64,000 bases of DNA from Escherichia coli (lineage in GTDB: Bacteria; Pseudomonadota; Gammaproteobacteria; Enterobacterales; Enterobacteriaceae): the NCBI RefSeq assembly GCF_041886205.1, contig NZ_CP169029.1, one strand, 5' to 3'. Position 1 is the first letter of the stretch. Each line of letters opens with the position of its first letter. The notes under the pieces were generated by a model. The model worked only from the letters and a program-made list of their open reading frames with translations. It had not been told where the DNA came from and did not search any database. The position numbers and the translations under genes are program-made. Of this stretch, positions 1-46,901 are shown piece after piece.

Positions 1-590
1 ACAATATCCCGTGGATTCTGGATAACGGGCTGCACTGCGGCAACAGTCTGGTGCAGGCGGAAAACTGGATCAATATCGGCAACCCGGAGCTGATCGGCAA
101 GCGTGCCGGGCATCCGGTACCTGTCGGAACGGGCGGGACACTGCATGACTATGTGCCGTTTTATTTTACCCCCTTCTCGCCAATGCTGATGAACATCCAC
201 AGCGGGCGCGGCGGCATTAAGCAACGCCCCAATGAGGAGATCGTTATTCTGGTCAGCAACTTGCGAAACGTGGCAGCACACGACGTACCCTTCGTGTTTA
301 CCGACAGCCATGCTTACTATAACTGGACCAACTACTACACCAGTCTGGATAGTCTGGACCAGATCGACTGGCCCATTTTGCAGGCACGGGACTTTCGCCG
401 CGATCCAGACGATCCGGCTAAATTTGAACGCTATCAGGCAGAGGCGCTAATCTGGCAACACTGCCCGATCTCTCTGCTGGATGGGATAATTTGTTACAGC
501 GAAGAGGTCAGGTTACAATTAGAACAATGGCTGTTTCAGCGTAATCTAACAATGTCCGTTCACACACGGGCTGGATGGTACTTCTCATGA
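1..590 (+). CDS. darT: DarT-like ssDNA ADP-ribosyltransferase toxin (DUF4433), 5'-partial
   Basis: ORF 51..590 remains open in frame back to base 3 ([12 protein letters not shown]...), so the gene starts left of the window; C-terminal region contains a conserved glutamate context ([20 protein letters not shown]) reminiscent of DUF4433; followed with ATGA overlap by a macrodomain protein, the DarTG operon signature. Confidence 0.55.
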
Positions 591-1654
591 TCACATATAC
601 ACAAGGCAATTTACTGGACGCACCGGTGGAAGCTCTGGTGAATACGGTTAATACCGTCGGTGTCATGGGGAAAGGCATCGCGTTGATGTTTAAAGAGCGC
701 TTCCCCGAAAATATGAAAGTCTATGCCCTCGCCTGCAAACAAAAGCAGGTGATCACCGGCAAAATGTTCATTACCGAAACCGGGGAACTGATGGGACCGC
801 GCTGGATTGTTAATTTTCCGACCAAACAGCACTGGCGCGCTGATTCCCGCATGGAGTGGATTGAAGATGGCTTGCAGGACTTACGCCGCTTTTTGATTGA
901 AGAGAACGTGCAGTCCATCGCCATTCCACCACTGGGCGCAGGCAACGGTGGTTTGAACTGGCCGGACGTTCGGGCGCAGATTGAATCTGCCCTTGGCGAC
1001 CTTCAGGACGTTGATATCCTGATTTACCAACCGACTGAAAAATACCAGAACGTTGCCAAAAGCACTGGCGTAAAAAAGCTCACTCCCGCCAGAGCCGCCA
1101 TCGCTGAACTGGTGCGTCGCTACTGGGTATTGGGGATGGAGTGCAGCCTACTGGAAATCCAGAAACTGGCCTGGCTGTTACAACGCGCCATTGAGCAGCA
1201 TCAACAGGACGATATCCTCAAACTGCGGTTTGAAGCTCACTATTATGGCCCCTATGCGCCCAATCTGAACCATCTGCTTAATGCGCTGGACGGCACCTAT
1301 CTTAAAGCCGAGAAACGCATCCCGGACAGCCAACCGCTGGATGTGATCTGGTTTAACGATCAGAAAAAAGAACACGTTAATGCGTATCTGAACAACGAAG
1401 CCAGAGAGTGGCTACCTGCGCTGGAGCAGGTCAGCCAGTTAATTGACGGCTTTGAATCGCCGTTTGGTCTGGAGTTGCTGGCAACCGTAGACTGGTTGCT
1501 GAGCCGTGGCGAATGTCAACCAACGCTGGATTCCGTTAAGGAAGGGCTGCACCAGTGGCCTGCGGGCGAACGCTGGGCCAGCCGTAAGTTGAGGCTGTTT
1601 GATAATAATAATCTGCAATTTGCCATTAACCGCGTAATGGAGTTCCATTGCTGA
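587..1654 (+). CDS. darG: DarG-like macrodomain antitoxin
   Basis: N-terminal macrodomain motifs ([38 protein letters not shown]); about 355 aa; start ATG at 587 overlaps the stop of the upstream gene. Confidence 0.65.
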
Positions 1655-1672
1655 GGGTTTAAGGAGCGCCTT

Positions 1673-4600
1673 TTGAGTACCGTGGGCCAGCGCGAACGCG
1701 CCACACAGCAGCGTCTGATTCAGTTTTTTGTTGAAGATTTAGGTTACCGCCATCTGAGTCACCGCACCGGGTACACCGGGAACAGCAACATCGACACTAA
1801 TATACTGAGCGCGTGGCTAAAACGGCGCGGCGTTAATGATACGTTGATCACCCGGGCGTTGCGGCAACTGGATTCCGCCGCCGCTCTGGGCGAAGGCAAA
1901 AAACTCTATTACGCCAATAAAGAGGTCTATCGCCTACTGCGTTACGGCGTGAAAGACAAAGAAGGCGCAGGCGAGCAGAACCAAACCGTGTGGCTGATTG
2001 ACTGGGCCAACCCACAAGCCAATGATTTCGCCATCGCCGATGAGGTGACGGTCAAAGGCGAGTACTGCAAGCGCCCGGATCTGGTGCTGTACGTTAACGG
2101 CATTGCGCTGGGCGTGATTGAACTTAAGCGTTCGTCAGTGCACGTCAGCGAAGGCATCCGGCAGAATCTCGATAATCAAAAGAAAACCTTTATCCGCGAT
2201 TTCTTCACCACTATGCAGTTAGTGATGGCGGGCAACGATACGCAGGGCCTGCGCTACGGCACCATCGAAACCCCGGAAAAATACTATCTGGAGTGGAAAG
2301 AAGATAATCCAGGCGACTATACACATAAACTCGACTTTCATTTAAGTCGTCTGTGTAGCAAATCCAGGCTGTTGGATATCGTCCATAATTACATTGCCTT
2401 TGATGTCGGGGTGAAAAAACTCTGCCGCCATAATCAGTTCTTCGGCGTCGAGGCGGCTAAACAACATATTGCCCGTCGTGAAGGCGGTATTATCTGGCAC
2501 ACACAGGGATCGGGTAAAAGCCTGACGATGGTCTGGCTGGCGAAGTGGATCCGTGAAAATGTGCCAAACTCCCGCGTGTTGATTGTGACTGACCGCACCG
2601 AACTGGATGAACAGATCGAAAGCGTGTTTATGGGCGTGAATGAAGATATTTATCGCACCTCCAGCGGCAACGATCTTATCGCAACGCTCAATCATCCTAA
2701 CCCGTGGCTCATTTGCTCGCTGGTGCATAAATTTGGTCGTCGCAGCGAAGCTGAAGACAATGCAGCTACCGACGCCTTTATCACCGAATTACAGCACTCC
2801 CTGACGAAAACATTCCGCGCCAAAGGCGATCTGTTTGTTTTTGTGGACGAGTGCCACCGCACACAATCCGGCAAGCTGCATAACGCCATGACTGCCATTC
2901 TGCCGGACGCCCTGTTTATCGGTTTTACCGGCACACCGCTGATGAAGAAAGATAAGAAGAAGTCGGTTGAGGTGTTCGGCCCTTATATCCATACCTATAA
3001 ATTTGATGAAGCGGTGGCCGACGGTGTGGTGCTGGATCTGCGCTACGAGGCACGCGATATTGACCAGTATCTGACATCAGAGAAAAAGGTCGATGACTGG
3101 TTTGAAGCCAAGACTCGCGGTTTGTCGAATTTAGCTAGGACCCAGCTTAAGCAAAAGTGGGGATCAATGCAGAAGCTGCTCTCCAGCAAGTCGCGGCTGG
3201 AGCAGATCGTTAACGACATTTTGCTGGATATGGATACCCGTCCACGCCTGATGGACGGGCGCGGCAACGCCATGCTGGTATGCAGCAGTATCTATCAAGC
3301 CTGCAAGGTTTACGAGATGTTCAGCCAGACCGAGCTGGCAGGAAAAGTAGCGATTGTGACCAGCTATCGCCCCGATGCCGCCAGCATCAAAGGCGAAGAA
3401 ACGGGCGAAGGGTTAACGGAGAAACTCTCTAAACACGCCACCTATCGTAAAATGTTGGCTGACTATTTTGAACAAAGTGAAGAGAAGGCCGCCGCACGCA
3501 TTACCGAGTTCGAGCGGGAAGTGAAACAGCGTTTTATTGAAGAGCCGGGGCAAATGCGCCTGCTTATCGTGGTGGATAAGCTGCTGACTGGCTTTGACGC
3601 GCCGTCCGCCACCTATCTCTACATTGATAAAACCATGACCGACCATACGCTGTTTCAGGCGATTTGTCGGGTGAACCGGCTGGACGGTGAGGATAAAGAG
3701 TATGGCTATATTATCGATTATAAAGATCTGTTCCGTTCGCTGGATAAAGCGATTACCGATTACACCACGGGCGCGTTTGATGATTACGATCGGGACGATG
3801 TGGCCGGGTTGCTGAAAGACAGGCTAGAGCAGGCGCAACTGGATCTCGACAGCGCGCTGGAGATGGTTCGCAGCTTATGTGAACCCGTCAAAACCCCGCG
3901 CAGCCTGCAGGACTATCAGCACTATTTTTGCGGTGAATCAGGAGAGAATCAGACTTCGTTAAACGAAAAAGAGGCGCTGCGCCTGACATTTTACCAGTGC
4001 GTCGCCCGTCTGCTACGCGCTTATGCCAACATCGCCAATGAAATGCCGGAAGCAGGCTACACTGCCGAAGAGGTAGAGAGCATTCGCGCCGAAGTCGCTG
4101 AATTCGAAAAACTGCGCTATGAGATTAAGCTGACCAGCGGCGATCTTCTGGATATGAAGCGCTTTGAACCCGCTATGCGTCATTTACTGGATATGTATGT
4201 TCGCGCCGATGATAGCGAAGTGCTGATGGATTTTGAAGAGTTAAGTCTGATTGAACTGATTGTCGAGAAAGGCTTGGCGGCGACCGTCGCCCTGCCGGAT
4301 GATATCCGTAATAATCAGGATGCGATGGCGGAAACCATCGAAAACAACGTGCGCAAAACCATCGTGGATGAAAACCCGGTTAACCCAAAATACTATGGAC
4401 GCATGTCGCAACTGCTGGATGAACTGATTACCCTTCGCCGACAAAATGCGCTCAATTATCAGCAGTATCTGGAACGTATCCGCGATTTGTGTAAACAGGT
4501 CATCCGCCCGGAGCAAACCGCCGGAGCGTGCTACCCTGCCACCATGGATACACAAGCAAAGCGCGCCTTCTATGATAACTTCGGCCACGACGAGGTACTG

Positions 4601-4768
4601 GCGACCCGCATAGATACGACGATTCGCTATACCAAAAGGGCAGAGTGGATTGGCGATCGTTTTAAAGAACGGGAAATTGCCAACGCATTACGTGAAGAGA
4701 CCGCCAGCTATAATATTGATATTGATGAGGTGATAGCGCTTGCCCGTCAGCAGAAGGAATATCACTGA
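1673..4768 (+). CDS. hsdR: Type I restriction endonuclease R subunit (HsdR)
   Basis: 1031 aa; N-terminal PD-(D/E)xK nuclease motif (PDLVLYVNGIALGVIELKRS), Walker A (TQGSGKSLTMVW), DECH box (FVFVDECHRTQSG); TTG start with AAGGAG Shine-Dalgarno 7 nt upstream. Confidence 0.85.
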   Translation: MSTVGQRERATQQRLIQFFVEDLGYRHLSHRTGYTGNSNIDTNILSAWLKRRGVNDTLITRALRQLDSAAALGEGKKLYYANKEVYRLLRYGVKDKEGAGEQNQTVWLIDWANPQANDFAIADEVTVKGEYCKRPDLVLYVNGIALGVIELKRSSVHVSEGIRQNLDNQKKTFIRDFFTTMQLVMAGNDTQGLRYGTIETPEKYYLEWKEDNPGDYTHKLDFHLSRLCSKSRLLDIVHNYIAFDVGVKKLCRHNQFFGVEAAKQHIARREGGIIWHTQGSGKSLTMVWLAKWIRENVPNSRVLIVTDRTELDEQIESVFMGVNEDIYRTSSGNDLIATLNHPNPWLICSLVHKFGRRSEAEDNAATDAFITELQHSLTKTFRAKGDLFVFVDECHRTQSGKLHNAMTAILPDALFIGFTGTPLMKKDKKKSVEVFGPYIHTYKFDEAVADGVVLDLRYEARDIDQYLTSEKKVDDWFEAKTRGLSNLARTQLKQKWGSMQKLLSSKSRLEQIVNDILLDMDTRPRLMDGRGNAMLVCSSIYQACKVYEMFSQTELAGKVAIVTSYRPDAASIKGEETGEGLTEKLSKHATYRKMLADYFEQSEEKAAARITEFEREVKQRFIEEPGQMRLLIVVDKLLTGFDAPSATYLYIDKTMTDHTLFQAICRVNRLDGEDKEYGYIIDYKDLFRSLDKAITDYTTGAFDDYDRDDVAGLLKDRLEQAQLDLDSALEMVRSLCEPVKTPRSLQDYQHYFCGESGENQTSLNEKEALRLTFYQCVARLLRAYANIANEMPEAGYTAEEVESIRAEVAEFEKLRYEIKLTSGDLLDMKRFEPAMRHLLDMYVRADDSEVLMDFEELSLIELIVEKGLAATVALPDDIRNNQDAMAETIENNVRKTIVDENPVNPKYYGRMSQLLDELITLRRQNALNYQQYLERIRDLCKQVIRPEQTAGACYPATMDTQAKRAFYDNFGHDEVLATRIDTTIRYTKRAEWIGDRFKEREIANALREETASYNIDIDEVIALARQQKEYH

Positions 4769-5484
4769 TGCCAATCATGCAAATAGGCTCGTTACACTTG
4801 CTGGTCAACCGTAAGGCGATTAAGAATCTGCATATCAGCGTGCTGCCGCCTGATGGCAAAGTCCGCGTTTCAGCGCCGGAACATATGACGGAGACGGCGA
4901 TTCGTATGGCGGTTGCTTCACGCTTTCGCTGGATCAGAAAACAGCAGCAGGATTTCGCCAGACAGCCTCGTCAATCAGAGAGGGAAATGGTCAGCGGAGA
5001 GTGCCACTATCTTTGGGGCCGAAGATATCGCCTACTTGTGATTGAGCGTCACGGGCGTCACGAAGTAAAAGTTGCGGGAAATAATAAGCTCCAGCTTTAT
5101 GTTCAACCGGGAACCCGTGATGAAAATAAGGCATTGGCGTTAAGTGAATTTTATCGACATGAACTAAAACAGCAGGTGGCTAAGCTTCTACCTGAATGGC
5201 AGGACCGAATCGGTGTTCCCCTAACATTCTGGGGCATCAAAAAGATGAAAACCTTTTGGGGCACCTGTAACACTACAACAAAACGAATCTGGCTCAATCT
5301 GGAGCTAATTAAGAAGCCGCCGGAGTGTCTGGAGTATATTCTGGTGCATGAACTGGTTCATCTTCTGGAACGTCACCATAATGCTCGCTTCCGGTTGCAT
5401 ATGGATCGGTTTATTCCTGACTGGCGTGAGCGTCGGGATTTGTTAAATAATATGCCGTTAGCGTTTGAGGCATGGGAGTATTGA
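4768..5484 (+). CDS. DUF45 / M48-like zinc metallopeptidase (YgjP-like)
   Basis: 238 aa with HExxH motif (ILVHELVHLLERHH); start overlaps hsdR stop, so it is translationally coupled. Confidence 0.7.
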   Translation: MPIMQIGSLHLLVNRKAIKNLHISVLPPDGKVRVSAPEHMTETAIRMAVASRFRWIRKQQQDFARQPRQSEREMVSGECHYLWGRRYRLLVIERHGRHEVKVAGNNKLQLYVQPGTRDENKALALSEFYRHELKQQVAKLLPEWQDRIGVPLTFWGIKKMKTFWGTCNTTTKRIWLNLELIKKPPECLEYILVHELVHLLERHHNARFRLHMDRFIPDWRERRDLLNNMPLAFEAWEY

Positions 5485-6005
5485 TTGAGCCTGTAACTGT
5501 TTTTTGTCCATAAATTAACCTTCATTTGATGCTGGATTGAACATATCAAAATCAGACAATTACACAAATCTATGTACAGGCTCAACTCCTGCCATGGAAC
5601 GTAGTACTCACCAATAAGTAAGCATCAATACGGCGCTCCGTTAACGCTTACTAGCATGGTTATCTCCTTAAAAAATTGAGGCGACAACTATGCTGACGCA
5701 GGGGGGTATTGGGTGATCTCCTTCCATGAAAATACGCAGCTTGATTGCATTAAATTTATTTAATTTGCACTAATTTTGTTTAAGTTACATTACCACACGT
5801 GGGATATTGGAATACAAGCAACGCGAGGAATCAGTAAATATACCAATAATTGTATCACCCCTTTAATATTCATTAAGGTTTCAGGCCCTCCGGCACGATT
5901 CACCTGGCGAATCAATTCACGAGTCGCCCCAGAGTCACCGCCAATAAACATGCGATTCAACTCCCGATTCGATTCTCACTAATCTATTGTTTTATATAAA
6001 GATAG

Positions 6006-6063
6006 TCAGTACTGACTCTGTGACGACTCGCCGATGACTTGCCATAGAGTCATCGGCGAGTCG
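6006..6063. repeat. Two adjacent perfect palindromes (14 bp AGTCAGTACTGACT; 16-bp stem CGACTCGCCGATGACT with 8-nt loop)
   Basis: Read directly in an ORF-free AT-rich spacer downstream of the DUF45 gene. Confidence 0.8.
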
Positions 6064-6273
6064 GATCGGCATAATAAAAATTATCATAACGTAATTCTGA
6101 AATTATAACTTTATGATTTTAAATACCTATCAGCAAAAACTTGGTTTTGCATGGGGTGTGGAGATTTTGAGGTAAGAAGCAGGCTATCGTAAAATAGCCT
6201 GCTGGGATGGATTCAGTAATCACCGAATAAATTGCGGAGCAAAAAAACCGCCAATCAAGAGATGGGTTAGCAA

Positions 6274-6609
6274 TCAATTTTCGTATTTAAATTCAATATT
6301 AATCTTTAAAGCCTCTACATCTACTGTCACTTCACAGCCATGCCAGAATGGTTTTTCCTGAGATTTAAAGTTATCTAGAAAATAATTTCTTAATTCCACA
6401 AGAAAATCAAATAAATCACCGTTTGCTTGTGCCCCTGCCGAAAACCAATCAGTATTGCCAGTATCTGCATTTATATAGTCAAATTCACATTTACAATGAT
6501 CATTTTCAGGAGACAGTTCTGCTCTCATGATCACTTTGGATGCATTTTCAGGCGCAATGGATAGCAATACTGAACCTATATCATTATAAATCTCTTGATC
6601 AGTCCTCAC
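6274..6609 (-). CDS. Hypothetical small protein, immunity-protein-like
   Basis: 111-aa ORF starting with GTG immediately after the stop of the upstream ORF, with GGAGGT Shine-Dalgarno embedded in the upstream gene end; AT-rich. Confidence 0.35.
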   Translation of the reverse strand: MRTDQEIYNDIGSVLLSIAPENASKVIMRAELSPENDHCKCEFDYINADTGNTDWFSAGAQANGDLFDFLVELRNYFLDNFKSQEKPFWHGCEVTVDVEALKINIEFKYEN

Positions 6610-6921
6610 CTACTTACCTCCGGGTACATTTTTAAACGTTTCAGATACCGGCCTTATGCTGTTACCTGTATAAGATGGCTGGATATTAACTTTAATGCTC
6701 ACTATCCCTGACTCATCCATCTGCTGCATCAACAGAACGGATAAGTCATTCTTCATTGCCCACGGAATATCTTCACCCAATGCCCTGTCTATGGCTTCGT
6801 GAACCAACAAACTGTTAGCAGGGATGTCACCGTACTTCTCTTTGCAGGCTGTCGGGCTCGAAGCACATGTTGCGATCAGTTCATTACGCTGCTTGAGACT
6901 CAGATCTTCCATTTCTTTCAC
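6610..6921 (-). CDS. Hypothetical small protein, possible toxin C-terminal-domain-like module
   Basis: 103-aa ORF abutting the downstream ORF (TAG then GTG); preceded by a 9-bp-stem hairpin at about 7010-7035. Confidence 0.3.
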   Translation of the reverse strand: MKEMEDLSLKQRNELIATCASSPTACKEKYGDIPANSLLVHEAIDRALGEDIPWAMKNDLSVLLMQQMDESGIVSIKVNIQPSYTGNSIRPVSETFKNVPGGK

Positions 6922-7047
6922 GATCTGACCACAGTCACCACGGGCCTCACAACCTTTCGCCCTCGCCGCAAAGTTATCGATCTGATCAGCACTCAGGTAG
7001 TTATTCTCAACAACAATCCCAACTAAAAGGGTTGGGATTCATTACCC

Positions 7048-7491
7048 TTATGTATAAAGACTATCGTCGTAGGGTGCTTCAGTCAGAATTTTTTGAATTT
7101 CATGTCGTGCTTTTAGCTCCCATGAAAGATTCATATTTGCCATTAACTCAATAAATTTTGGGAACGCGATACGTCGTCCATCTCTGCCTTTAACCCTGTG
7201 TTCTAATTCATATTGGAATGCTGTCTTATAAGCGAGTTCTGACATGATCCAATAAAGTAGCTCATCTAGTGACCTAGTAACCTTCCGCGAGAATTCATAA
7301 CCTCTTTCTGAATGAATGTAATTATATACATTGTTTTCAAATGTAACATATGGTGTGCCATCACCAATTGGAGCGGAACAAAGATTAACTGAATGTCTTG
7401 GGAGACCAGCTTGCAAGGTCAACGCGTCAATTTTCCTTTGTATTTCATTGATATTCAGCAACATATTAGCGAACCTCACGAATATATCCAT
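7048..7491 (-). CDS. Hypothetical protein, immunity-protein-like
   Basis: 147-aa ORF whose ATG lies inside the 3' end of an upstream open frame (overlapping toxin/immunity-style arrangement). Confidence 0.35.
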   Translation of the reverse strand: MDIFVRFANMLLNINEIQRKIDALTLQAGLPRHSVNLCSAPIGDGTPYVTFENNVYNYIHSERGYEFSRKVTRSLDELLYWIMSELAYKTAFQYELEHRVKGRDGRRIAFPKFIELMANMNLSWELKARHEIQKILTEAPYDDSLYT

Positions 7492-7721
7492 TCTTCAATA
7501 GCCATTCCACATTCACTCGATCTTGCATATTAGGTAATATCTGAATCCCCCCTCCAGGCTCACCAAAAGCGGGGGCAATCTTTCCTTGTATAGCAGGCAA
7601 GGGTTTTATTACCTCATATTCATAGTATTTATATGAACGCATCCCGTTTGCAAGGCATCCATTGTTTTGACATGACGGGTAGGTTGCAGCTTTATATCCG
7701 GCTTTATTGCAGCCGTAACGC
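7468..7721 (-). pseudogene. Start-less open frame, possible C-terminal fragment of a truncated polymorphic-toxin gene
   Basis: Open frame on the minus strand (...NKAGYKAATYPSCQNNGCLANGMRSYKYYEYEVIKPLPAIQGKIAPAFGEPGGGIQILPNMQDRVNVEWLLKNGYIREVR*) with no plausible start, ending 21 nt inside the downstream ORF. Confidence 0.25.
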
Positions 7722-18796: not shown

Positions 18797-19090
<294 letters not shown>

Positions 19091-33653: not shown

Positions 33654-35159
33654 TCAGCCCAGAGTCGGCATGGAGAACGCTGCACCTGTCTCCTGCTGCA
33701 TTTCCGGCCAGCGTGCAGTGATGGTTTTCATTCGGGTGTAGAAACGCACGCCATCGTTCCCGTGAACATTGAGCGCGCCAAAAATGGAACGTTTCCAGCC
33801 ACCGAAACAGTGGAATGCCATTGGCACCGGGATCGGCACGTTGACCCCCACCATACCCGCCTGCACCTCTTCACAAAAGCGGCGTGCGCAGCCACCGTCA
33901 CGGGTGAAAATGGCCGAGCCATTACCATATTCGTGTCGGTTAATCAGATCCACCGCGCTGGCGTAATCTGCTACGCGCACCACAGAAAGCACCGGTCCGA
34001 AAATTTCTTCTTTATAGATGGTCATCTCCGGGGTGACGTTATCGAACAGAGTCGGCCCAACGAAATAGCCCTGCTCGTGCCCTTTCACGCTGAGGCCACG
34101 CCCGTCCACACGCAGGTTAGCCCCCTGAGCTTCGCCACTGTCGATATAGCCCAACACTTTGCTGCGGTGTGCGGCGGAGATCAGCGGCCCCATCTCGTTT
34201 TCTGGCGTCTGGTTCAGGCCAGGTCCGACGCGCAGCGAAGCGATCTTTTTTTCCAGCCGGGCGCAGAGTTCATCAGCCGTTTTATCGCCAACCGCCACCA
34301 CCACGGAAAGCGCCATGCAGCGTTCTCCTGCCGCACCATAAGCTGCGCCCATTATGGCGTTTGTCGCCATATCCATATCGGCATCCGGCATTAAAATGCA
34401 GTGGTTTTTCGCACCGCCGAGCGCCTGACAGCGCTTACCGTGGGCGGACGCAGTCAGGTACATGTATTCGGCAATCGGTGTTGAACCGACAAAACTGACG
34501 GCCTGCACGCGCGGGTCGGTCAGGAGCACATCAACGGATTCTTTATCGCCCTGCACCACGTTGAATACGCCGTCCGGCAGGCCTGCCTCTTTCAGCAGTT
34601 TCGCCAGCGCGAGCGCCAGAGACGGATCTTTTTCCGACGGTTTCAGCACGAAGGTGTTGCCTGTCGCCAGAGCTATCGGGAACATCCACATTGGCACCAT
34701 CGCCGGGAAGTTAAACGGCGTGATCCCGGCGCAGACCCCGAGCGGCTGCATCAGTGAGTGGCTGTCGACACCTGTGCCAACGTTCGCAGAGTGTTCGCCT
34801 TTTTGCAGATGTGGGATGCCGCAGGCGAATTCTACCACTTCCAGACCACGGGTCAGTTCACCTACTGCATCTGAGAAGACCTTACCGTGTTCTTCACTGA
34901 TAATACGGGCCAGACGCACCATATTCTCTTCAAGCAACGCTTTGAAGCGGAACATCACACGCGCGCGCTTGAGTGGAGCAAAACGTGCCCACGCGGGAAA
35001 CGCCAACTGTGCTGCGGCAATCGCCTGTTCGGTTTCCTGTGCCGTACTCATCACCACCTGGCGAATCTGCTCGCCAGTGGCCGGGTTGAAGATAGCCTGA
35101 ATGCGCTGGCCTGAACCGGTGACACATTCGCCGTGAATAAAATTCGCTACCGTCTCCAT
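33654..35159 (-). CDS. iolA: Methylmalonate-semialdehyde dehydrogenase IolA/MmsA
   Basis: 501 aa aldehyde dehydrogenase with catalytic Cys context and FTGST-like motif. Confidence 0.85.
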
Positions 35160-35449
35160 CCTTAACCTCTCGCTGTTGATACGTGACTGTTACCTGAACG
35201 TTATGTACTGAACACTATATATGAAACAAATATTCCATTTTAAGTTGAAATAAAATAAATAATGATTATTGTGATCAAGGATGGATTTTTATGTGAACAG
35301 CCAGCATCACTGACTCAGCCTGAGCTATTAGGAGTTTCGGGCGAGGAAATGACTGAAGCTTCTGTTTCATTTTTGCTGCCAGGTGGATGGCCAACATTTA
35401 AAAGACGCGGTTTTGCGTTTAGAATCATGAGACTGGATAGGGGGATAAC

Positions 35450-36310
35450 ATGACGACAGCAACCAGCCTGAACGAACTACAAAAGCAAATCCGCGATCGC
35501 TACGATAGCCTGAGCAAAAGGCTGCAGCAGGTCTCCCGCTATGTACTGGATAATACGAACAGTGTCGCGTTTGATACGGTTGCGGTCATAGCCGAACGTG
35601 CCGATGTTCCACCCTCTACACTGATTCGTTTTGCCAATGCCTTTGACTTCACCGGCTTCAACGAAATGAAACAGTTATTTCGTATGCACCTGGTGGAGGA
35701 AACCGCCAGCTACAGCGATCGTGCGCGACTGTTCCGCGAAATGGAGAGCGAAGCCGTACCTGAAACGCCGCTCGATATTTTGCAGGAGTTCGCCAGTTCG
35801 AACTCGCAGGCGCTGCAGCAGTTGGCTGCCCGCGCCGAACCGGAGATGCTGGAGCACGCCGTACAACTACTGGCCTACGCCGACACCATTTACATCGCCG
35901 GATTACGCAGATCCTTTAGCATTGCTGCTTATCTTACCTATGCTTTAAGCCACCTAGAGTGCCGCCCTATTCTGCTTGACGGGATGGGCGGCATGCTGCG
36001 CGAACAGATCAGCCGTATTAAGGCGTGCGACATTGTGGTGTCGATCAGTTTCTCGCCGTACGCGGAAGAAACGGTGATGGTCAGCAAAACCGCCGCCAGC
36101 GTCGGCGCTCGGCAGATTGTGATTACGGATAGCCAGATCAGCCCACTGGCAACGTTCAGTGATCTCTGCTTTGTGGTGAAAGAGGCTCAGGTGGACGCAT
36201 TTCGGTCTCAGTCGGCAACATTGTGTCTGGTGCAGTCGTTAGTGGTCGCGCTAGCTTACCGTTTAGGAGATAAAAAACATAATAATACCCAGGAAAACAG
36301 TAACCAATAA
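35450..36310 (+). CDS. iolR: RpiR/MurR-family transcriptional regulator IolR (HTH + SIS domain)
   Basis: 286 aa; divergent from iolA. Confidence 0.75.
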   Translation: MTTATSLNELQKQIRDRYDSLSKRLQQVSRYVLDNTNSVAFDTVAVIAERADVPPSTLIRFANAFDFTGFNEMKQLFRMHLVEETASYSDRARLFREMESEAVPETPLDILQEFASSNSQALQQLAARAEPEMLEHAVQLLAYADTIYIAGLRRSFSIAAYLTYALSHLECRPILLDGMGGMLREQISRIKACDIVVSISFSPYAEETVMVSKTAASVGARQIVITDSQISPLATFSDLCFVVKEAQVDAFRSQSATLCLVQSLVVALAYRLGDKKHNNTQENSNQ

Positions 36311-36504
36311 TAACCAATGAACTCCTCCCCCGAGTCCATATAAGAGTAAATGATTCGGTGCCAGTAGCGATACAGACTTCAGATTGAATATCAACTGTAC
36401 TGCTATCTCCCTAAAAGGTCATGCCCCATGTGAGCGTACAACGAGAGCCTTAATCCTTAATAGCGAAGAAGATTTCTCTAGTAGGTGGTAATGTAACCCA
36501 GATA

Positions 36505-36898
36505 TAACGGCTTCTTTAAACAGTTTATTTACCATCGTTTTCTTACCTAGCAGGCGCTGAAGTTCTTTAATTTTATTCATGGCGGCAGCAAGTTCAGAGG
36601 CCGGAATACCCTGTTCTTCGGCTGTCACAGTAGTGAAGCTTCCTTCAAGGTAATGATACGCCAGAGAAATAACTGGCTGGCAGCCACACCGTGTTGCCGG
36701 GCAACAAGGGAGACCGTCATTCCCGGTTCAAAACTCTGCTGAACAATAGCGATCTTTTCCTGTGTAGTACGCCGTCTGCGTTTCTCCGGTCCTAAGACAT
36801 CAATCATCTGCTCTCCAATGACTAGTCTAAAAACTAGTATTAAGACTATCACTTATTTAAGTGATACTGGTTGTCTGGAGATTCAGGGGGCCAGTCTA
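36505..36898 (-). mobile_element. IS2 remnant (left end with partial orfA/insC)
   Basis: Terminal sequence TAGACTGGCCCCCTGAATCTCCAGACAACCAGTATCACTTAAATAAGTGATAGTCTTAATACTAG (reverse complement) and orfA translation [50 protein letters not shown]; homology is lost after ~KEAV. Confidence 0.65.
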
Positions 36899-37328
36899 TA
36901 CACTACCTCAGGTAGATGATGAGATCAGATACAGGGATCAACTGACGGTGAGCGCAGGCCCGCGAGTGCCCTGATTTAGCGCTGGTTTTGCTTTCCCATC
37001 GAAGGGCCCATACATCATCACGCCCGCGAAACAGTCGACAAAATAACGCAACTTTCTCATCCGTGGATAATACGGAAACGCACTGCACAGGACTCTGCGG
37101 TTTACGTCACCATTCAATCCCATAAGCTTCAAGTTATGTTTGCCCTCAGTGCAGCTAATTCATCACTGTCAGATTTATGAACCATAGTCGTTACCTGTAT
37201 CCGATCCACTGAGGCACCACGGCAGAAATTCGGGTCCCCTACACTGATGACAAAGCCGCCCTCTTCTGCCTATTAACTCAAGCACCTCCCAACAACTTAC
37301 AGAAACTTAATCCTAATACAACTGTAAT

Positions 37329-37892
37329 TCAGTTGTGTCGTGGTCGGCCGCGGTTGCTTTTTTCGGGAAGCCTGCTACGGCCCAGAATAATACCGTGTTC
37401 TTTCTGATCCTGTTTAGCCAGATAGCTAAGGGCGTAACGTAAGTTGTCTACCGCGGACTTATCACTATAGTGCATCACGTGATCGATACGCACCGGGTAT
37501 TTGTCTTTAGCCCGGCAAAGGTGAAAGTAACCCTCCCCTTCCGTGATCTGCCTCCAGATATCTCCCAGTTGCCTGGATATCTGATAAGAGTTCTTGTGAC
37601 GTTGCCCATCCAGGTAGCCGACAAAATGAATATGAAGCCCTTTGTTTTGTGTATATTCCATTACCCAGTAATATCCCGCCAACATCGATTGGGTTTCGCT
37701 AAGTAAGCGGTATATTTCCATACACATACTGTGCTTACAGCCATGACCAAAACTGGGCGTGTCTTTCCTGTAGGCAAAATCAATTCTGAAAGGTAACAGT
37801 TTAGAAAAACGTTGAAACAGACCTTCCATGTGTTCATTCACGTCTTTCAGAATCATGAAGTCCATTTCGTAATTGGGATTAGCATTATACAT
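37329..37892 (-). CDS. YagK/YfjJ-family (inovirus Gp2-like) protein
   Basis: 187 aa; motif GLHIHFVGYLDG; typical partner of AlpA/YfjI in CP4-57-like elements. Confidence 0.65.
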   Translation of the reverse strand: MYNANPNYEMDFMILKDVNEHMEGLFQRFSKLLPFRIDFAYRKDTPSFGHGCKHSMCMEIYRLLSETQSMLAGYYWVMEYTQNKGLHIHFVGYLDGQRHKNSYQISRQLGDIWRQITEGEGYFHLCRAKDKYPVRIDHVMHYSDKSAVDNLRYALSYLAKQDQKEHGIILGRSRLPEKSNRGRPRHN

Positions 37893-38858
37893 TTTATAGT
37901 CCTTACTTTATAAAACTGACAGGAAAGTGGAATTACATAAATACTGAGAGTACAGAAACGCCGTACCGCGGCATTAATAAACGAGGTAACCAGCAGCACA
38001 GACAACCTGATAAAACTGTTTCGTATTACCTCATTACAGTAATAGGGTAATGATTCAGAATACAGTAAGACTCTCTTAAACTGAGGACCAGAACGAATTA
38101 CAATAAAAAACACACCTCATATAATTGAGTTTAAGAAAGCACCATTCAATTACTTACAGGAAATAATCTGATCTTCACAAAAGTCAGCATTGAATAGCCA
38201 CAGGCAACATCGCTATTAGTATTGCCGTACCATTAAGTAAAAACAGAGACTCTGCAGAGAGAGCCTACAGATATTTAATCTCACAATAAGAAGATTATTT
38301 CATACAGAAAAGATTATATTTACCCATAAACTGTAACGGAGCTATAACGTACGAACTAAAGACAATATACTCTAATAGTGTTCTGGTACGTAACTAGTAT
38401 TAAATACAAACCAGACATACATTCAGTGGATTAACTTTCTCAATATTACGCTATAAGTGTAGTAACATAATTTACACATAACTAAACTCCATACACCACC
38501 ACACTGTAGTGTATGGAGATATATGTATTACGCACATACAGAATACTTAGCATAAAGAGGAGTGATATTACGATAGAAAGAGATAAGACAACATAACAGA
38601 TAACATAACTCCCATTAATAATACTAATTAACCTAAATTATTTATTGAACACGAAAACAATGAAGGCCCCACCTCACCTCAGACTAAAGCCGACAATATC
38701 CTGAGCAACACTCTATCCAATAGTAAATAGTGGTTACACCAGTTATATTTACTGACTGACCTGTACCAGAGTTTTCTAATACAACGCTGACATGGTAAAG
38801 ACATTAGTCTCCTCCGCAAGTAGCAGAGGAGACTATATGTACTCAACGATTAAGTCGT

Positions 38859-39176
38859 TCAGAGGTCAAAGTTAGGTGCGACACACAACGTTTTTCCCTC
38901 AATAACCGGTACAACTCTGTTTTGTTCATACAGTAAATCCAGTAACCAGTTGATTTTATCCTTTTTCCGGAAACGGTTCGGACCACGCTGTAAAATGTCA
39001 TTTTTTTTCATACAGAGGATCCCCTTCTCAATACAATAGCTTTTTATCCAGTTGAAAAGTTCAAGCTCCTCTGGAATGAGTCGCACAGGTACGGTCAGGG
39101 CAGAGTTGTCAAAAGTTAACGGATTAGACAACCGCACATACTCATTACCGTACCATATTGCTAATTCTCTCGCCAT
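38859..39176 (-). pseudogene. DUF3987 (YfjI-like) gene, C-terminal fragment, disrupted by IS186
   Basis: Frame continues from the IS186 junction. Confidence 0.5.
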
Positions 39177-39202
39177 TTCTGCAGTGTAAGGGGAAATATC
39201 CC

Positions 39203-40541
39203 CATAAGCGCTAACTTAAGGGTTGTGGTATTACGCCTGATATGATTTAACGTGCCGATGAATTACTCTCACGATAACTGGTCAGCAATTCTGGCCCATA
39301 TTGGTAAGCCCGAAGAACTGGATACTTCGGCACGTAATGCCGGGGCTCTAACCCGCCGCCGCGAAATTCGTGATGCTGCAACTCTGCTACGTCTGGGGCT
39401 GGCTTACGGCCCCGGGGGGATGTCATTACGTGAAGTCACTGCATGGGCTCAGCTCCATGACGTTGCAACATTATCTGACGTGGCTCTCCTGAAGCGGCTG
39501 CGGAATGCCGCCGACTGGTTTGGCATACTTGCCGCACAAACACTTGCTGTACGCGCCGCAGTTACGGGTTGTACAAGCGGAAAGAGATTGCGTCTTGTCG
39601 ATGGAACAGCAATCAGTGCGCCCGGGGGCGGCAGCGCTGAATGGCGACTACATATGGGATATGATCCTCATACCTGTCAGTTCACTGATTTTGAGCTAAC
39701 CGACAGCAGAGACGCTGAACGGCTGGACCGATTTGCGCAAACGGCAGACGAGATACGCATTGCTGACCGGGGATTCGGTTCGCGTCCCGAATGTATCCGC
39801 TCACTTGCTTTTGGAGAAGCTGATTATATCGTCCGGGTTCACTGGCGAGGATTGCGCTGGTTAACTGCAGAAGGAATGCGCTTTGACATGATGGGTTTTC
39901 TGCGCGGGCTGGATTGCGGTAAGAACGGTGAAACCACTGTAATGATAGGCAATTCAGGTAATAAAAAAGCCGGAGCTCCCTTTCCGGCACGTCTCATTGC
40001 CGTATCACTTCCTCCCGAAAAAGCATTAATCAGTAAAACCCGACTGCTCAGCGAGAATCGTCGAAAAGGACGAGTAGTTCAGGCGGAAACGCTGGAAGCA
40101 GCGGGCCATGTGCTATTGCTAACATCATTACCGGAAGATGAATATTCAGCAGAGCAAGTGGCTGATTGTTACCGTCTGCGATGGCAAATTGAACTGGCTT
40201 TTAAGCGGCTCAAAAGTTTGCTGCACCTGGATGCTTTGCGTGCAAAGGAACCTGAACTCGCGAAAGCGTGGATATTTGCTAATCTACTCGCCGCATTTTT
40301 AATTGACGACATAATCCAGCCATCGCTGGATTTCCCCCCCAGAAGTGCCGGATCCGAAAAGAAGAACTAACTCGTTGTGGAGAATAACAAAAATGGTCAT
40401 CTGGAGCTTACAGGTGGCCATTCGTGGGACAGTATCCCTGACAGCCTACAAAACGCAATTGAAGAACGCGAGGCATCGTCTTAACGAGGCACCGAGGCGT
40501 CGCATTCTTCAGATGGTTCAACCCTTAAGTTAGCGCTTATG
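39203..40541 (+). mobile_element. IS186 (IS4 family) with 11-bp target duplication GGAAATATCCC
   Basis: 23-bp inverted repeats CATAAGCGCTAACTTAAGGGTTG at 39203-39225 and 40519-40541; direct repeats at 39192-39202 and 40542-40552. Confidence 0.85.
39252..40370 (+). CDS. insL: IS186 transposase (InsL)
   Basis: 372 aa; translation MNYSHDNWSAILAHIGKPEELDTSARNAGALTRRREIRDAATLLRLGLAYG... matches my recollection of IS186 InsL. Confidence 0.85.
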   Translation: MPMNYSHDNWSAILAHIGKPEELDTSARNAGALTRRREIRDAATLLRLGLAYGPGGMSLREVTAWAQLHDVATLSDVALLKRLRNAADWFGILAAQTLAVRAAVTGCTSGKRLRLVDGTAISAPGGGSAEWRLHMGYDPHTCQFTDFELTDSRDAERLDRFAQTADEIRIADRGFGSRPECIRSLAFGEADYIVRVHWRGLRWLTAEGMRFDMMGFLRGLDCGKNGETTVMIGNSGNKKAGAPFPARLIAVSLPPEKALISKTRLLSENRRKGRVVQAETLEAAGHVLLLTSLPEDEYSAEQVADCYRLRWQIELAFKRLKSLLHLDALRAKEPELAKAWIFANLLAAFLIDDIIQPSLDFPPRSAGSEKKN

Positions 40542-41660
40542 GGAAATATCCCCCTCTTCACCGCTCGAATGGTAAATAAGTCCTGCCAGTCTTGCCATAT
40601 ACTCTGCATTTTTAGCAGCATATTCCCGGCAATGTCTTAAAGGCCCCAATCCCCCCAGCTTCGATTCCACATCATTGTAATAATCCGTCCAGATTCTGGC
40701 AGCCTGAGGAGAAAAGTGAAGGCAACGTCGTTCACCACTCATCGCCAGACTTTCATCAATAAGCTCATTGATCCTCTCTTCAAACAAATCCTGATACTGT
40801 GATGAATAATTATCTCCGGTTATTATCCTTGTCCCCTGCGTTGATGTTGGTTGACACATCAAAAACCTTGCATGATGTCCTGACGTTTTCACAATTTCTT
40901 TTTTTCGCGTACAAAAACCTTTGTGGTAAACATCAGGCTGAATCATCACCGATATCGTCAGTCTTGGCTCCTTCAAATTAATTCCGGGAGATGATTTCCT
41001 GTCGATGAAAAGAGAACCTCCATCCCACAAAGTGTTAATAATTCCCAGTTTACTCATGGCCCGGCTGTCAAAAATTACCCCCCCTTCACTGGATACAAGA
41101 GCAAAAGAGCGATTGCTGTCGGAATAATATTTTAACATTCCCTCTATCGTTGTCTCATTAAAAATTGTTCGACGTATCTGCGGCGGAACAGGAGGTTTAT
41201 TCAGATGCGTTTCAAGCTCTGATTCTGTTGCCTTGTAATCTTTACCGGCACGAATCTCTTTATGAAATTTTGATTCCAGCGCTTTTTGTTTTTGCTCCCA
41301 TATTTCCTTTTCTGTACTGTAATTCTCAACCAGTTTCGCGTATTCTTCCGCCAGGGCTTCATCCCTGAGATAAAATGCTTTCATAAACACTTTATCCACG
41401 GTCGTTTTCCTTTCACCGGAATCAGCCAGAATCAGAGAGTAAAGATTAACAGGCCCATGTAAATTTCCAGGTCTGCACACGTCAATCTGATTCTGACAGG
41501 CAATTGAGATCGCTGTTAATGCGGATGTTGCCACCATAGCCAAAGGTGCCTGTGTATTTTTTTGAGTTTCAATTATTGCATTTCTCACCAGCGGTGGTAG
41601 TGCATATATCGGATAAGGATTTTCTGGTGCAAGTAAGCACATAAAAGCCTCTCTTTTCAT
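40530..41660 (-). pseudogene. DUF3987 (YfjI-like) gene, N-terminal 376 codons, disrupted by IS186
   Basis: Resembles CP4-57 YfjI; frame ends inside the IS186 terminal repeat. Confidence 0.55.
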
Positions 41661-41860
41661 TAATGGGTTAGTAAAATAGCAGCAAATCCCGCTACAATAG
41701 CGAAAATAGCTGCTATTCAGACCTGATGCTCTGAGAAATACAGAGCATTTGTAGATCTGATGTTTAATAAACCGATAAGGTTAATTCAGTGAAGACTGTA
41801 TTATTCACCACGAAATATCATTCATATTTCTCATTCTTAATACCTCCAGAAATTATTTCA

Positions 41861-42200
41861 CTAATACCTTTCCCCCGGTCTTTTCCCTTTCTCCAGAACC
41901 ATAGTGTAAATATTAACGGCCCCACGTAAATTTCCGGGACTGCATACGTCAACCTGATTCTGACAGGCAATTGACATCGCTGTTAATACTGACATTGCAA
42001 CCAGAGTCAGAGGTACTTGTTTATTGTATTGAGCTTTAATTATTGCCTTCCCTATCATTGATGGTCATGCATATACTGAATACGGCATATCCGGTTTGAT
42101 GTAAGACATAAATGCTTCCTTTTTCGTAATACGTTTCGGTTATAGCAGCAATTACCGCTACAATAGCGACAATAGCTGCTCTTTCAACAATGAATGCTGG
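41861..42200 (-). repeat. Degenerate tandem duplicate of the yfjI-like 5' end and upstream region
   Basis: 41900-42190 aligns with 41440-41700; the 65-aa ORF 41861..42058 repeats the N-terminal motif (...SIACQNQVDVCSPGNL...). Confidence 0.55.
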
Positions 42201-45698: not shown

Positions 45699-46901
45699 TT
45701 ATTTATTCACAATTTGAGACATCACATAATCCGCCCATGCCTGCATCATCGGTACACGCTGCTCCAGTAGATCAGTACGATGATATGCCGCCTCAACCTT
45801 ATTTTTCAGCGTATGAGCGAGCGCCCTTTCCGCCAGATCCCGCGAATACCCCTGTTCACTACACCAGTCCCTGAATGTTGAGCGAAAACCATGTGCCGTG
45901 GCAACTCGCCCCGGAATGTCACTGACGGCTTTCTTTTTACGCAGAAAACTTGTCAACACCATATCGGAAAGGATCTGCTGCTTTCTGGGTGAAGGGAACA
46001 CCAGTTCATCATGCAGGCCACGTATATTTTCCAGAATGTAAATAGCCTGCCGGGATAAAGGAACACGATGCTGTAGCCTGGCTTTCATTCTTTCTGCAGG
46101 TATAGTCCATACCCGCTTATGAAAATCAATTTCAGCCCAGCGCATTCCCCTGGCTTCGCCCGAGCGAGTTGCTGTAAGTATCACCATTAATAACAGTGCG
46201 CGGGTAACATTATAAGGTTCATCACTATACACACTGGTCGCCACAAAAAGCGGTAACTGCCTCCAGGGCATTGCTGGTTGGTGTTCATCACGTCCTCTTG
46301 TCTGCTGAGGAAGCAAATGGTCAACCACATCAACAGGATTTGCCACACAAAAACCGTGCGCCCATCCCCACTGCATAACAACATGAATGCGCTGTTTAAC
46401 CCGGCTTGCCGTTTCTGACAAGGTTAACCAGACTGGACGCAGTGTTTCTGCCACGTCCGCAGCCGTAATCGAATCCAGCGTTTTTGCTCCCAGTTGAGGA
46501 AACGCGTAATTCTCAAGCGTCGATAACCACTGCCTTACATGCTTTGGATTTTCCCATCCTGGAGACAATTCTGCATGTACACGCCTGGCTGCATCGGCAA
46601 ATGTTGGGATAACGACTTTCTCAGATTCAGCCTTTTTAATCTCCAGAGGATCATCACCTGCAGCAAGTTGCTCTCGCATTATCCGGGCAGTACGTGCAGC
46701 TTCAGCAATACTGACCTCTGGGTAAGTTCCCAATCCAGCATTACGTCTTTTTTGTGTCACCGGACTTACATAACGAAAAACCCATTTCCCCCGCCCCTTT
46801 ACTGAAGAAGGATGAAGGGTCAGTCCGGTAATTCCCCCATGGGGCAATGGTTTGTCATCAGGTTTGATATGTCTTGCTTTCGTATCCGTCAATACTGCCA
46901 T
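45699..46901 (-). CDS. int: Tyrosine integrase, P4/CP4-57 type
   Basis: 400 aa; N-terminal MAVLTDTKARHIKPDDKPLPHGG... and C-terminal catalytic region (HGFRSTFRDW...LAH...Y). Confidence 0.85.
   Translation of the reverse strand: MAVLTDTKARHIKPDDKPLPHGGITGLTLHPSSVKGRGKWVFRYVSPVTQKRRNAGLGTYPEVSIAEAARTARIMREQLAAGDDPLEIKKAESEKVVIPTFADAARRVHAELSPGWENPKHVRQWLSTLENYAFPQLGAKTLDSITAADVAETLRPVWLTLSETASRVKQRIHVVMQWGWAHGFCVANPVDVVDHLLPQQTRGRDEHQPAMPWRQLPLFVATSVYSDEPYNVTRALLLMVILTATRSGEARGMRWAEIDFHKRVWTIPAERMKARLQHRVPLSRQAIYILENIRGLHDELVFPSPRKQQILSDMVLTSFLRKKKAVSDIPGRVATAHGFRSTFRDWCSEQGYSRDLAERALAHTLKNKVEAAYHRTDLLEQRVPMMQAWADYVMSQIVNK

Follow-up and report, generated by a model that had tools for sequence, protein, structure and literature searches.

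IS2 is an E. coli element of the IS3 family, bounded by a left (IRL) and a right inverted repeat, with a promoter region and the reading frames of OrfA and of OrfB, the DDE transposase. CP4-57-type elements are islands carrying int, alpA, yfjI and yfjJ, among other genes. Loci for myo-inositol catabolism (iol) occur in other E. coli strains, some of them adjacent to afa-8, and in Salmonella on the island GEI4417/4436. Finally, IS-mediated homologous recombination is known to shuffle island cargo, two IS copies serving as portable homology and the product being a hybrid IS with parental flanks on each side and no target duplication. Here we describe a locus where an iol block, an IS2 remnant and a CP4-57-like island backbone adjoin one another.

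The analysed DNA, hereafter the window, is a stretch of 64,000 nucleotides from an E. coli genome. Read from right to left, its island backbone comprises an integrase gene (45699-46901), an alpA-like HTH gene, a DUF3987/YfjI gene, a Gp2-like gene and the stub of a TOTE-type primase/helicase gene, which is the gene order of the CP4-57-type elements. The window island differs from these in that it adjoins phoH/efeB, with no tRNA in the window, the right flank being phoH-efeB-putA. In addition, its TOTE gene is cut to a stub of ~90 codons and its YfjI/DUF3987 gene is split by an IS421 copy (IS4 family, 39204-40540). The same IS421 insertion was seen in iol-negative strains, 675SK2 and SCU-104 among them, but C11 and ZYB39 lack it. 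Of the intact backbone genes, the one nearest to the iol side, on the minus strand at 37329-37892, is a 187-aa ORF of the inovirus-type Gp2 or YfjJ-like kind. RefSeq labels it "inovirus-type Gp2 protein"; its match to Pfam REP_ORF2-G2P is weak (21.4 bits for a cut-off of 27.8) and NCBIfam gave no match.

The iol cargo ends with iolR (35450-36310, plus strand), a 286-aa ORF with HTH_6 and SIS domains typical of a MurR/RpiR-type repressor, and its counterpart in the record of E. coli ZYB39 is annotated MurR/RpiR. It is followed by a 186-bp non-coding spacer (36311-36496) with a hairpin at 36317-36339, in which no IS2 homology was detected by blastn or tblastx. The preliminary description had placed the IS2 remnant directly after iolR, which the presence of this spacer contradicts. 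The spacer is specific to the iol module and is kept 3' of iolR at every chromosomal E. coli iol locus examined, regardless of the right-hand neighbour. In search of a donor species, we looked for an exact 25-mer of the spacer, conserved in all E. coli variants, and obtained 0 matches among 100,044 species-representative genomes. An Rfam scan of positions 34000-40000 (E≤1) returned zero matches, the Salmonella iol-island sRNAs included, and thus places neither an sRNA nor a riboswitch in the spacer or the debris to its right. Between 36200 and 37450, four short terminator-like hairpins were counted for 0.8 expected; promoter-like sites were not in excess, and repeat matches were short and chance-like.

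The IS2-family stub lies on the minus strand at 36497-36898, consistent with the preliminary description, according to which only the left ~400 bp of IS2 remain. Nucleotides 1-394 of the RefSeq-annotated IS2 of strain LH13-b align by blastn with the window from 36898 down to 36506, and tblastx extended the homology to 36497. The outer end of the IRL is at 36898, and the IRL sequence through this position is exactly that of a full-length IS2 of strain C11 and nearly that of the LH13-b copy. Two pieces of OrfA were recovered with the profile "IS2 repressor TnpA" (NF006928): residues 1-51 in the ORF 36625-36852 (108.7 bits) and residues 62-105 in the ORF 36419-36628 (58.8 bits), both below the cut-off of 229 bits. 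Since they lie in different frames, the orfA of the stub is frameshifted. Compared with IS2, the IRL, the promoter region and, in these two pieces, OrfA are recognisable, and only nt 1 to ~400 are kept: beyond this point IS2 homology stops, and no OrfB, right inverted repeat or 5-bp target duplication was found for the stub. Nor was a second IS2 segment detected anywhere in the 64-kb window by blastn or tblastx. The stub is thus a remnant and not a functional IS member.

The identity of the stub to IS2 is not uniform along its length. We aligned it with four iol-associated copies (JML285, the C11 iol locus, ATCC 8739 and NCTC10444) and with three IS2 copies from islands that share the backbone family but lack iol (C11, LH13-b and QDFD216). 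On the inner side, positions 36311-36673 are identical to the iol-associated region of JML285 (363/363), and the inner 168 nt of the stub (36506-36673) match canonical IS2 of LH13-b at 137/169 positions, that is ~81%. On the outer side, positions 36674-36898 agree with the full-length IS2 in the C11 backbone at every site (225/225) and with LH13-b at nearly all (222/225), with ~33 sites differing from the iol-associated copies. In the three-way comparison, 34 consecutive diagnostic sites of iol type are followed by 33 of backbone type with a single switch, an ordering whose chance probability is ~7e-20. The last iol-type site is 36660 (36658 with LH13-b as reference) and the first backbone-type site is 36674, which puts the crossover in the 13 nt at 36661-36673, ccagagaaataac, the same in both parent lineages. 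The stub accordingly divides into an inner part from a diverged, iol-associated lineage (36497-36660, minus strand, ~IS2 nt 239-402, the 3' part of orfA) and an outer part from the canonical lineage (36674-36898, minus strand, IS2 nt 1-225, with the IRL, the promoter region and the 5' part of orfA, ATG at 36807). Overall the two parental left ends are ~81% identical, with 13-15 identical bases at the switch point. For the iol-type IS, no close full-length relative was present among the matches listed for E. coli chromosomes and PLSDB plasmids: the best match outside iol loci in E. coli chromosomes reached 84.8%, and the plasmid matches listed were ~85% identical, with 13 further plasmid records at 90-99%. 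The mosaic itself is directly visible in the alignments, and we regard the stub as very probably a recombinant of two IS2-family left ends that joins the iol block to the island backbone.

The right-hand continuation of the stub bears on how the outer 225 nt were acquired. From 36661 to ~37500 there are zero differences from the C11 backbone, so that the identity crosses from IS2 into the flank. IS copies undergo gene conversion, and an iol-type stub already joined to the TOTE gene at its IRL could have had its outer 225 nt overwritten from a canonical IS2 located elsewhere; that no reciprocal product was found agrees with such an event. We consider it improbable, because the tract equals at 225/225 positions the C11 IS2 of this exact site, including a C at 36867 where LH13-b and QDFD216 have a T, because the identity to C11 runs on unbroken into the flank, and because the precursor it calls for, an iol-type IRL abutting TOTE, is present in no genome. 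Joining of the two left ends by recombination at the switch point remains the preferred reading.

The preliminary description saw ~430 bp without convincing genes to the right of IS2. There is indeed no intact gene in 36899-37328, but the segment resolves into identifiable parts: a 12-nt filler that does not code for TOTE (36899-36910), a TOTE conflict-system archaeo-eukaryotic primase (AEP)/helicase 5' stub (36911-37185, minus strand, ATG at 37185) and 143 bp of intergenic DNA up to the Gp2-like gene (37186-37328), identical in the C11 backbone. The filler is also found in E2348/69, LH13-b and QDFD216, and not in 675SK2. The ORF 36903-37088 matches PF22548 above its gathering score (36.1 bits for a cut-off of 27, E 6.6e-9), covering positions 1-37 of 230, compared with 1-66 in LH13-b, whose stitched translation scores 69.5 bits. 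In the 100%-identical record of ZYB39, RefSeq calls a pseudogene that corresponds to window positions 36912-37185. A full-text literature search on "TOTE" yielded nothing usable, and the name is used here from the Pfam and RefSeq labels only. Homologues of the stub are 87-88% identical, and it lacks ~57 nt that are present in LH13-b, QDFD216, 675SK2 and E2348/69, four of the relatives in the alignment. A complete uninterrupted TOTE gene, with the full 230-position domain and the helicase part, is not present, owing to frameshifts, stops and the end of homology at ~36910. With the TOTE gene dead and orfA frameshifted and truncated, no piece of the junction has a current function.

In every lineage compared, the homology with longer AEP-TOTE proteins breaks off at "…IPVSDLIIY" (~36910/36911), and this holds for the IS2-free lineages 675SK2, an iol-negative strain with the yfjI::IS421 backbone, and E2348/69. 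IS2 as the cause of the TOTE truncation is ruled out by this common endpoint, from which it also follows that the TOTE stub predates the joining event. The "ORF-poor debris", formerly taken as a product of that event, is thus an older backbone pseudogene. Homologues of the TOTE stub and its intergenic DNA were detected in 1755 of 5426 E. coli genomes, and an IS2 left end abuts the TOTE stub in only 13 genomes; the junction is exact in 4 of them, and the other 9 follow the LH13-b type, which has 57 additional nt.

The comparison with iol-negative relatives of the same backbone, proposed in the preliminary description, proved informative. A full-length IS2 occupies the exact spot in C10 and C11, and 675SK2 has the same TOTE stub without IS2. 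In C11 the backbone island adjoins phoH/efeB, as in the window, and its full-length IS2 (a pseudogene) is found at the identical TOTE-stub junction (…GGGGGCCAGTCTA directly followed by TACAC…), with LacI/sugar-acid cargo to the left of it in place of iol. The iol locus of C11 lies at 3.31 Mb, inverted relative to the backbone copy; it is collinear with window positions 10764-36673 and 99.9% identical over 10764-33614. The two parental arrangements are therefore observed directly, and so is their presence together in a single genome: in C11 (NZ_CP010133) the two IS2 configurations are at 79,788 (+) and 3,305,744 (-), and C10 is arranged likewise. Further to the left, window positions 1-7600 hold type I restriction-modification genes, DarG and IS66/IS3/ISEc11 debris; the window leaves the context of the C11 iol locus at ~7621, which marks another IS-rich mosaic boundary.

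The hybrid junction region was recovered from ZYB39 (100%) and ZYB62 (99.1%, query 1-1009), two bovine strains from China that are both 100% identical to the window over 14000-37328. As these are independently assembled complete genomes, the junction is not an assembly artefact. Among the 5426 complete genomes the hybrid is common to these two only, which marks it as derived and of recent origin. The whole window had no match in any complete RefSeq E. coli genome. The island that holds the identical iol-IS2-TOTE junction in ZYB39 is at tRNA-Thr (thrW)/proA and not at phoH, and over the compared interval 37300-42180 the identity of ZYB39 to the window drops from 100% to ~93% right of ~38300. 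This drop implies a second recombination within the backbone and, together with the thrW/proA location, indicates that the joined segment has since moved between related islands via backbone homology.

An iolR-like gene was detected in 56 of the 5426 complete genomes, in agreement with the published figure of less than 2% of E. coli for iol (PMC9430895). It is chromosomal in 49 (≥95% identity) and plasmid-borne in 7. On these seven plasmids (14EC033, ZH48 and others) the gene is only 91% identical to the chromosomal one and presumably represents a separate iol acquisition. The iol block, iolR and the spacer of the window are the same as at other E. coli iol loci, afa-8-adjacent ones included, and on the Salmonella island, with 98-100% identity. 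What differs among the loci examined is the right-hand neighbour: fec/IS1, fimbrial/evgAS, an IS3-family element with a helicase, IS110 debris, afaE-8 or, here, the island backbone. In at least 14 genomes, FDAARGOS_1058 and strain 744 among them, the iol block and the afa-8 (bmaE/afaD) adhesin operon are direct neighbours; in strain 744, an internal deletion has joined a remnant of iolE to the 3' end of iolR.

The iol core module common to all strains has its left boundary at a DDE-transposase pseudogene (~18856-19036), with a counterpart in ATCC 8739 as well. Neither blastn nor tblastx shows any similarity of this pseudogene to IS2; the module is therefore bracketed by remnants of two unrelated IS elements. 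Such bracketing by IS remnants on both sides would be expected had the iol block moved as a composite transposon between two IS2 copies, the stub being the leftover of one. This explanation is very improbable: the left remnant is unlike IS2, the window holds no second IS2, and on the right the junction is a crossover between homologous sequences instead of an IS end fused to target DNA. Moreover, lacking OrfB and the right inverted repeat, the stub cannot supply ends or transposase for a composite transposon. We rejected the IS2-flanked transposon on the ground that the left remnant is unrelated to IS2.

The inner breakpoint of the stub is widely distributed. In 35 iol-positive genomes, iolR, the spacer and the stub through 36660 are present with the same breakpoint, and in 14 more genomes, those of the afa-8 group, the spacer is retained but the stub is down to 16 nt (to 36521). 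Besides the ZYB39/ZYB62 hybrid, at least four different right-hand neighbours occur at the stub loci examined among the 35: ATCC 8739 has IS1/fec, NCTC10444 a fimbrial operon close to evgAS, JML285 and C11 an IS3-family element with a helicase, and GF60 IS110 debris. The truncation of IS2 is consequently an old feature of the iol module that predates its arrival here. In the other iol loci examined, the stub is of iol type throughout. In JML285 and C11, the closest iol relatives, the iol-type IRL tip is replaced by another IS3-family element, and the intact IRL tip of the window cannot come from those copies.

These distributions revise the reading of the IS2 remnant and adjacent debris as the scar of the event that joined iol to the island. 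The junction between iol and backbone does lie inside the stub, at 36661-36673, but the truncation and the debris are older, and the loss of IS2 down to ~400 bp was not part of the joining. The preliminary description also raised the case of iol lying elsewhere with no link to IS2; iol does occur at other loci, but every copy examined had an IS2-like stub or trace. That IS2 transposed beside iolR on this very island and later lost its right ~930 bp as the scar of iol delivery would account for the surviving left ~400 nt and the missing target duplication, but this is the least credible of the explanations and in effect contradicted, given that the same inner breakpoint and 186-bp spacer occur in 35 genomes, with other neighbours at the loci examined, that a 16-nt trace occurs in 14 more, and that the stub is a mosaic of two lineages.

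The recombinant origin that we favour would involve two parents. One would have been an old, already truncated IS2-like stub, extending from the IRL to orfA codon ~105, lying 186 bp downstream of iolR and travelling with iol wherever the block is present in E. coli. The other would have been a canonical IS2 whose IRL abutted the TOTE stub, at the edge of the variable cargo in a CP4-57-like island. A crossover within the 13 common bases at 36661-36673 would have joined them, the left side (iolR and the other iol genes, with no less than 26 kb of IS-rich flank) deriving from an iol locus like those of C11 and JML285, and the right side from a C11-like backbone island adjoining phoH/efeB. The product matches the known outcome of IS-mediated shuffling, but here one partner is a dead 400-nt stub, ~81% identical to the other, and the switch falls in a 13-nt patch of identity.

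The exchange was probably homology-driven, by RecA-type homeologous recombination or by short-homology template switching. Classical RecA recombination with active mismatch repair is poor on substrates ~81% identical with 13-15 bases of identity. The short identity patch, the ~19% divergence of the parents and the lack of a reciprocal junction make a textbook RecA crossover less certain. Because the parents in C10 and C11 are mutually inverted, a single crossover there would invert >2 Mb of the chromosome and yield the window junction. We searched for the reciprocal junction with a synthetic chimera (backbone IS2 body, iol-type IRL side and flank) and found no full-length match in the 5426 genomes, ZYB39 and ZYB62 included; the best match, in RM10740, was 94.5% identical in two pieces with a different arrangement. 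A retained reciprocal inversion is thus unsupported. The junction may have arisen by inversion or by replacement with imported DNA; a double crossover that brought in imported DNA, or template switching at a short homology, would agree just as well with the observations.

Other observations concern the island edge itself. The full-length IS2 copies located there have no 5-bp target duplications (TGCCT/TACAC; GGACG/GAGAT), and IS2 at this edge borders three cargos: LacI/sugar-acid genes, type VI secretion debris and iol. Taken together, these features suggest earlier exchanges at the same IS2. Five left neighbours reach the TOTE stub either within ~12 nt or with 57 nt more in between, which looks like a preferred boundary of backbone and cargo (window 36899-36911, 675SK2, E2348/69, LH13-b and QDFD216): the IS2 IRL, another IS3-family end, AAA-protein cargo, 57 nt then IS2, and 57 nt then other DNA. 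Tentatively, the TOTE-stub edge may be a recurrent cargo-exchange point of this E. coli island family, iol being one case of a module swap through IS homology at a preferred site.

The process described here is ordinary IS-homology recombination between genomic islands, and it brings no new element, gene, function or mechanism. It provides a base-level account of how a rare E. coli trait, myo-inositol catabolism (~1% of genomes), was placed on an integrase-bearing island, through recombination between a live IS2 at the island's cargo boundary and a dead IS stub that accompanies the cargo. The case further illustrates that IS remnants adjoining cargo can predate the local junction, and the mechanism explains the occurrence of the iol block at many chromosomal sites with the same stub.
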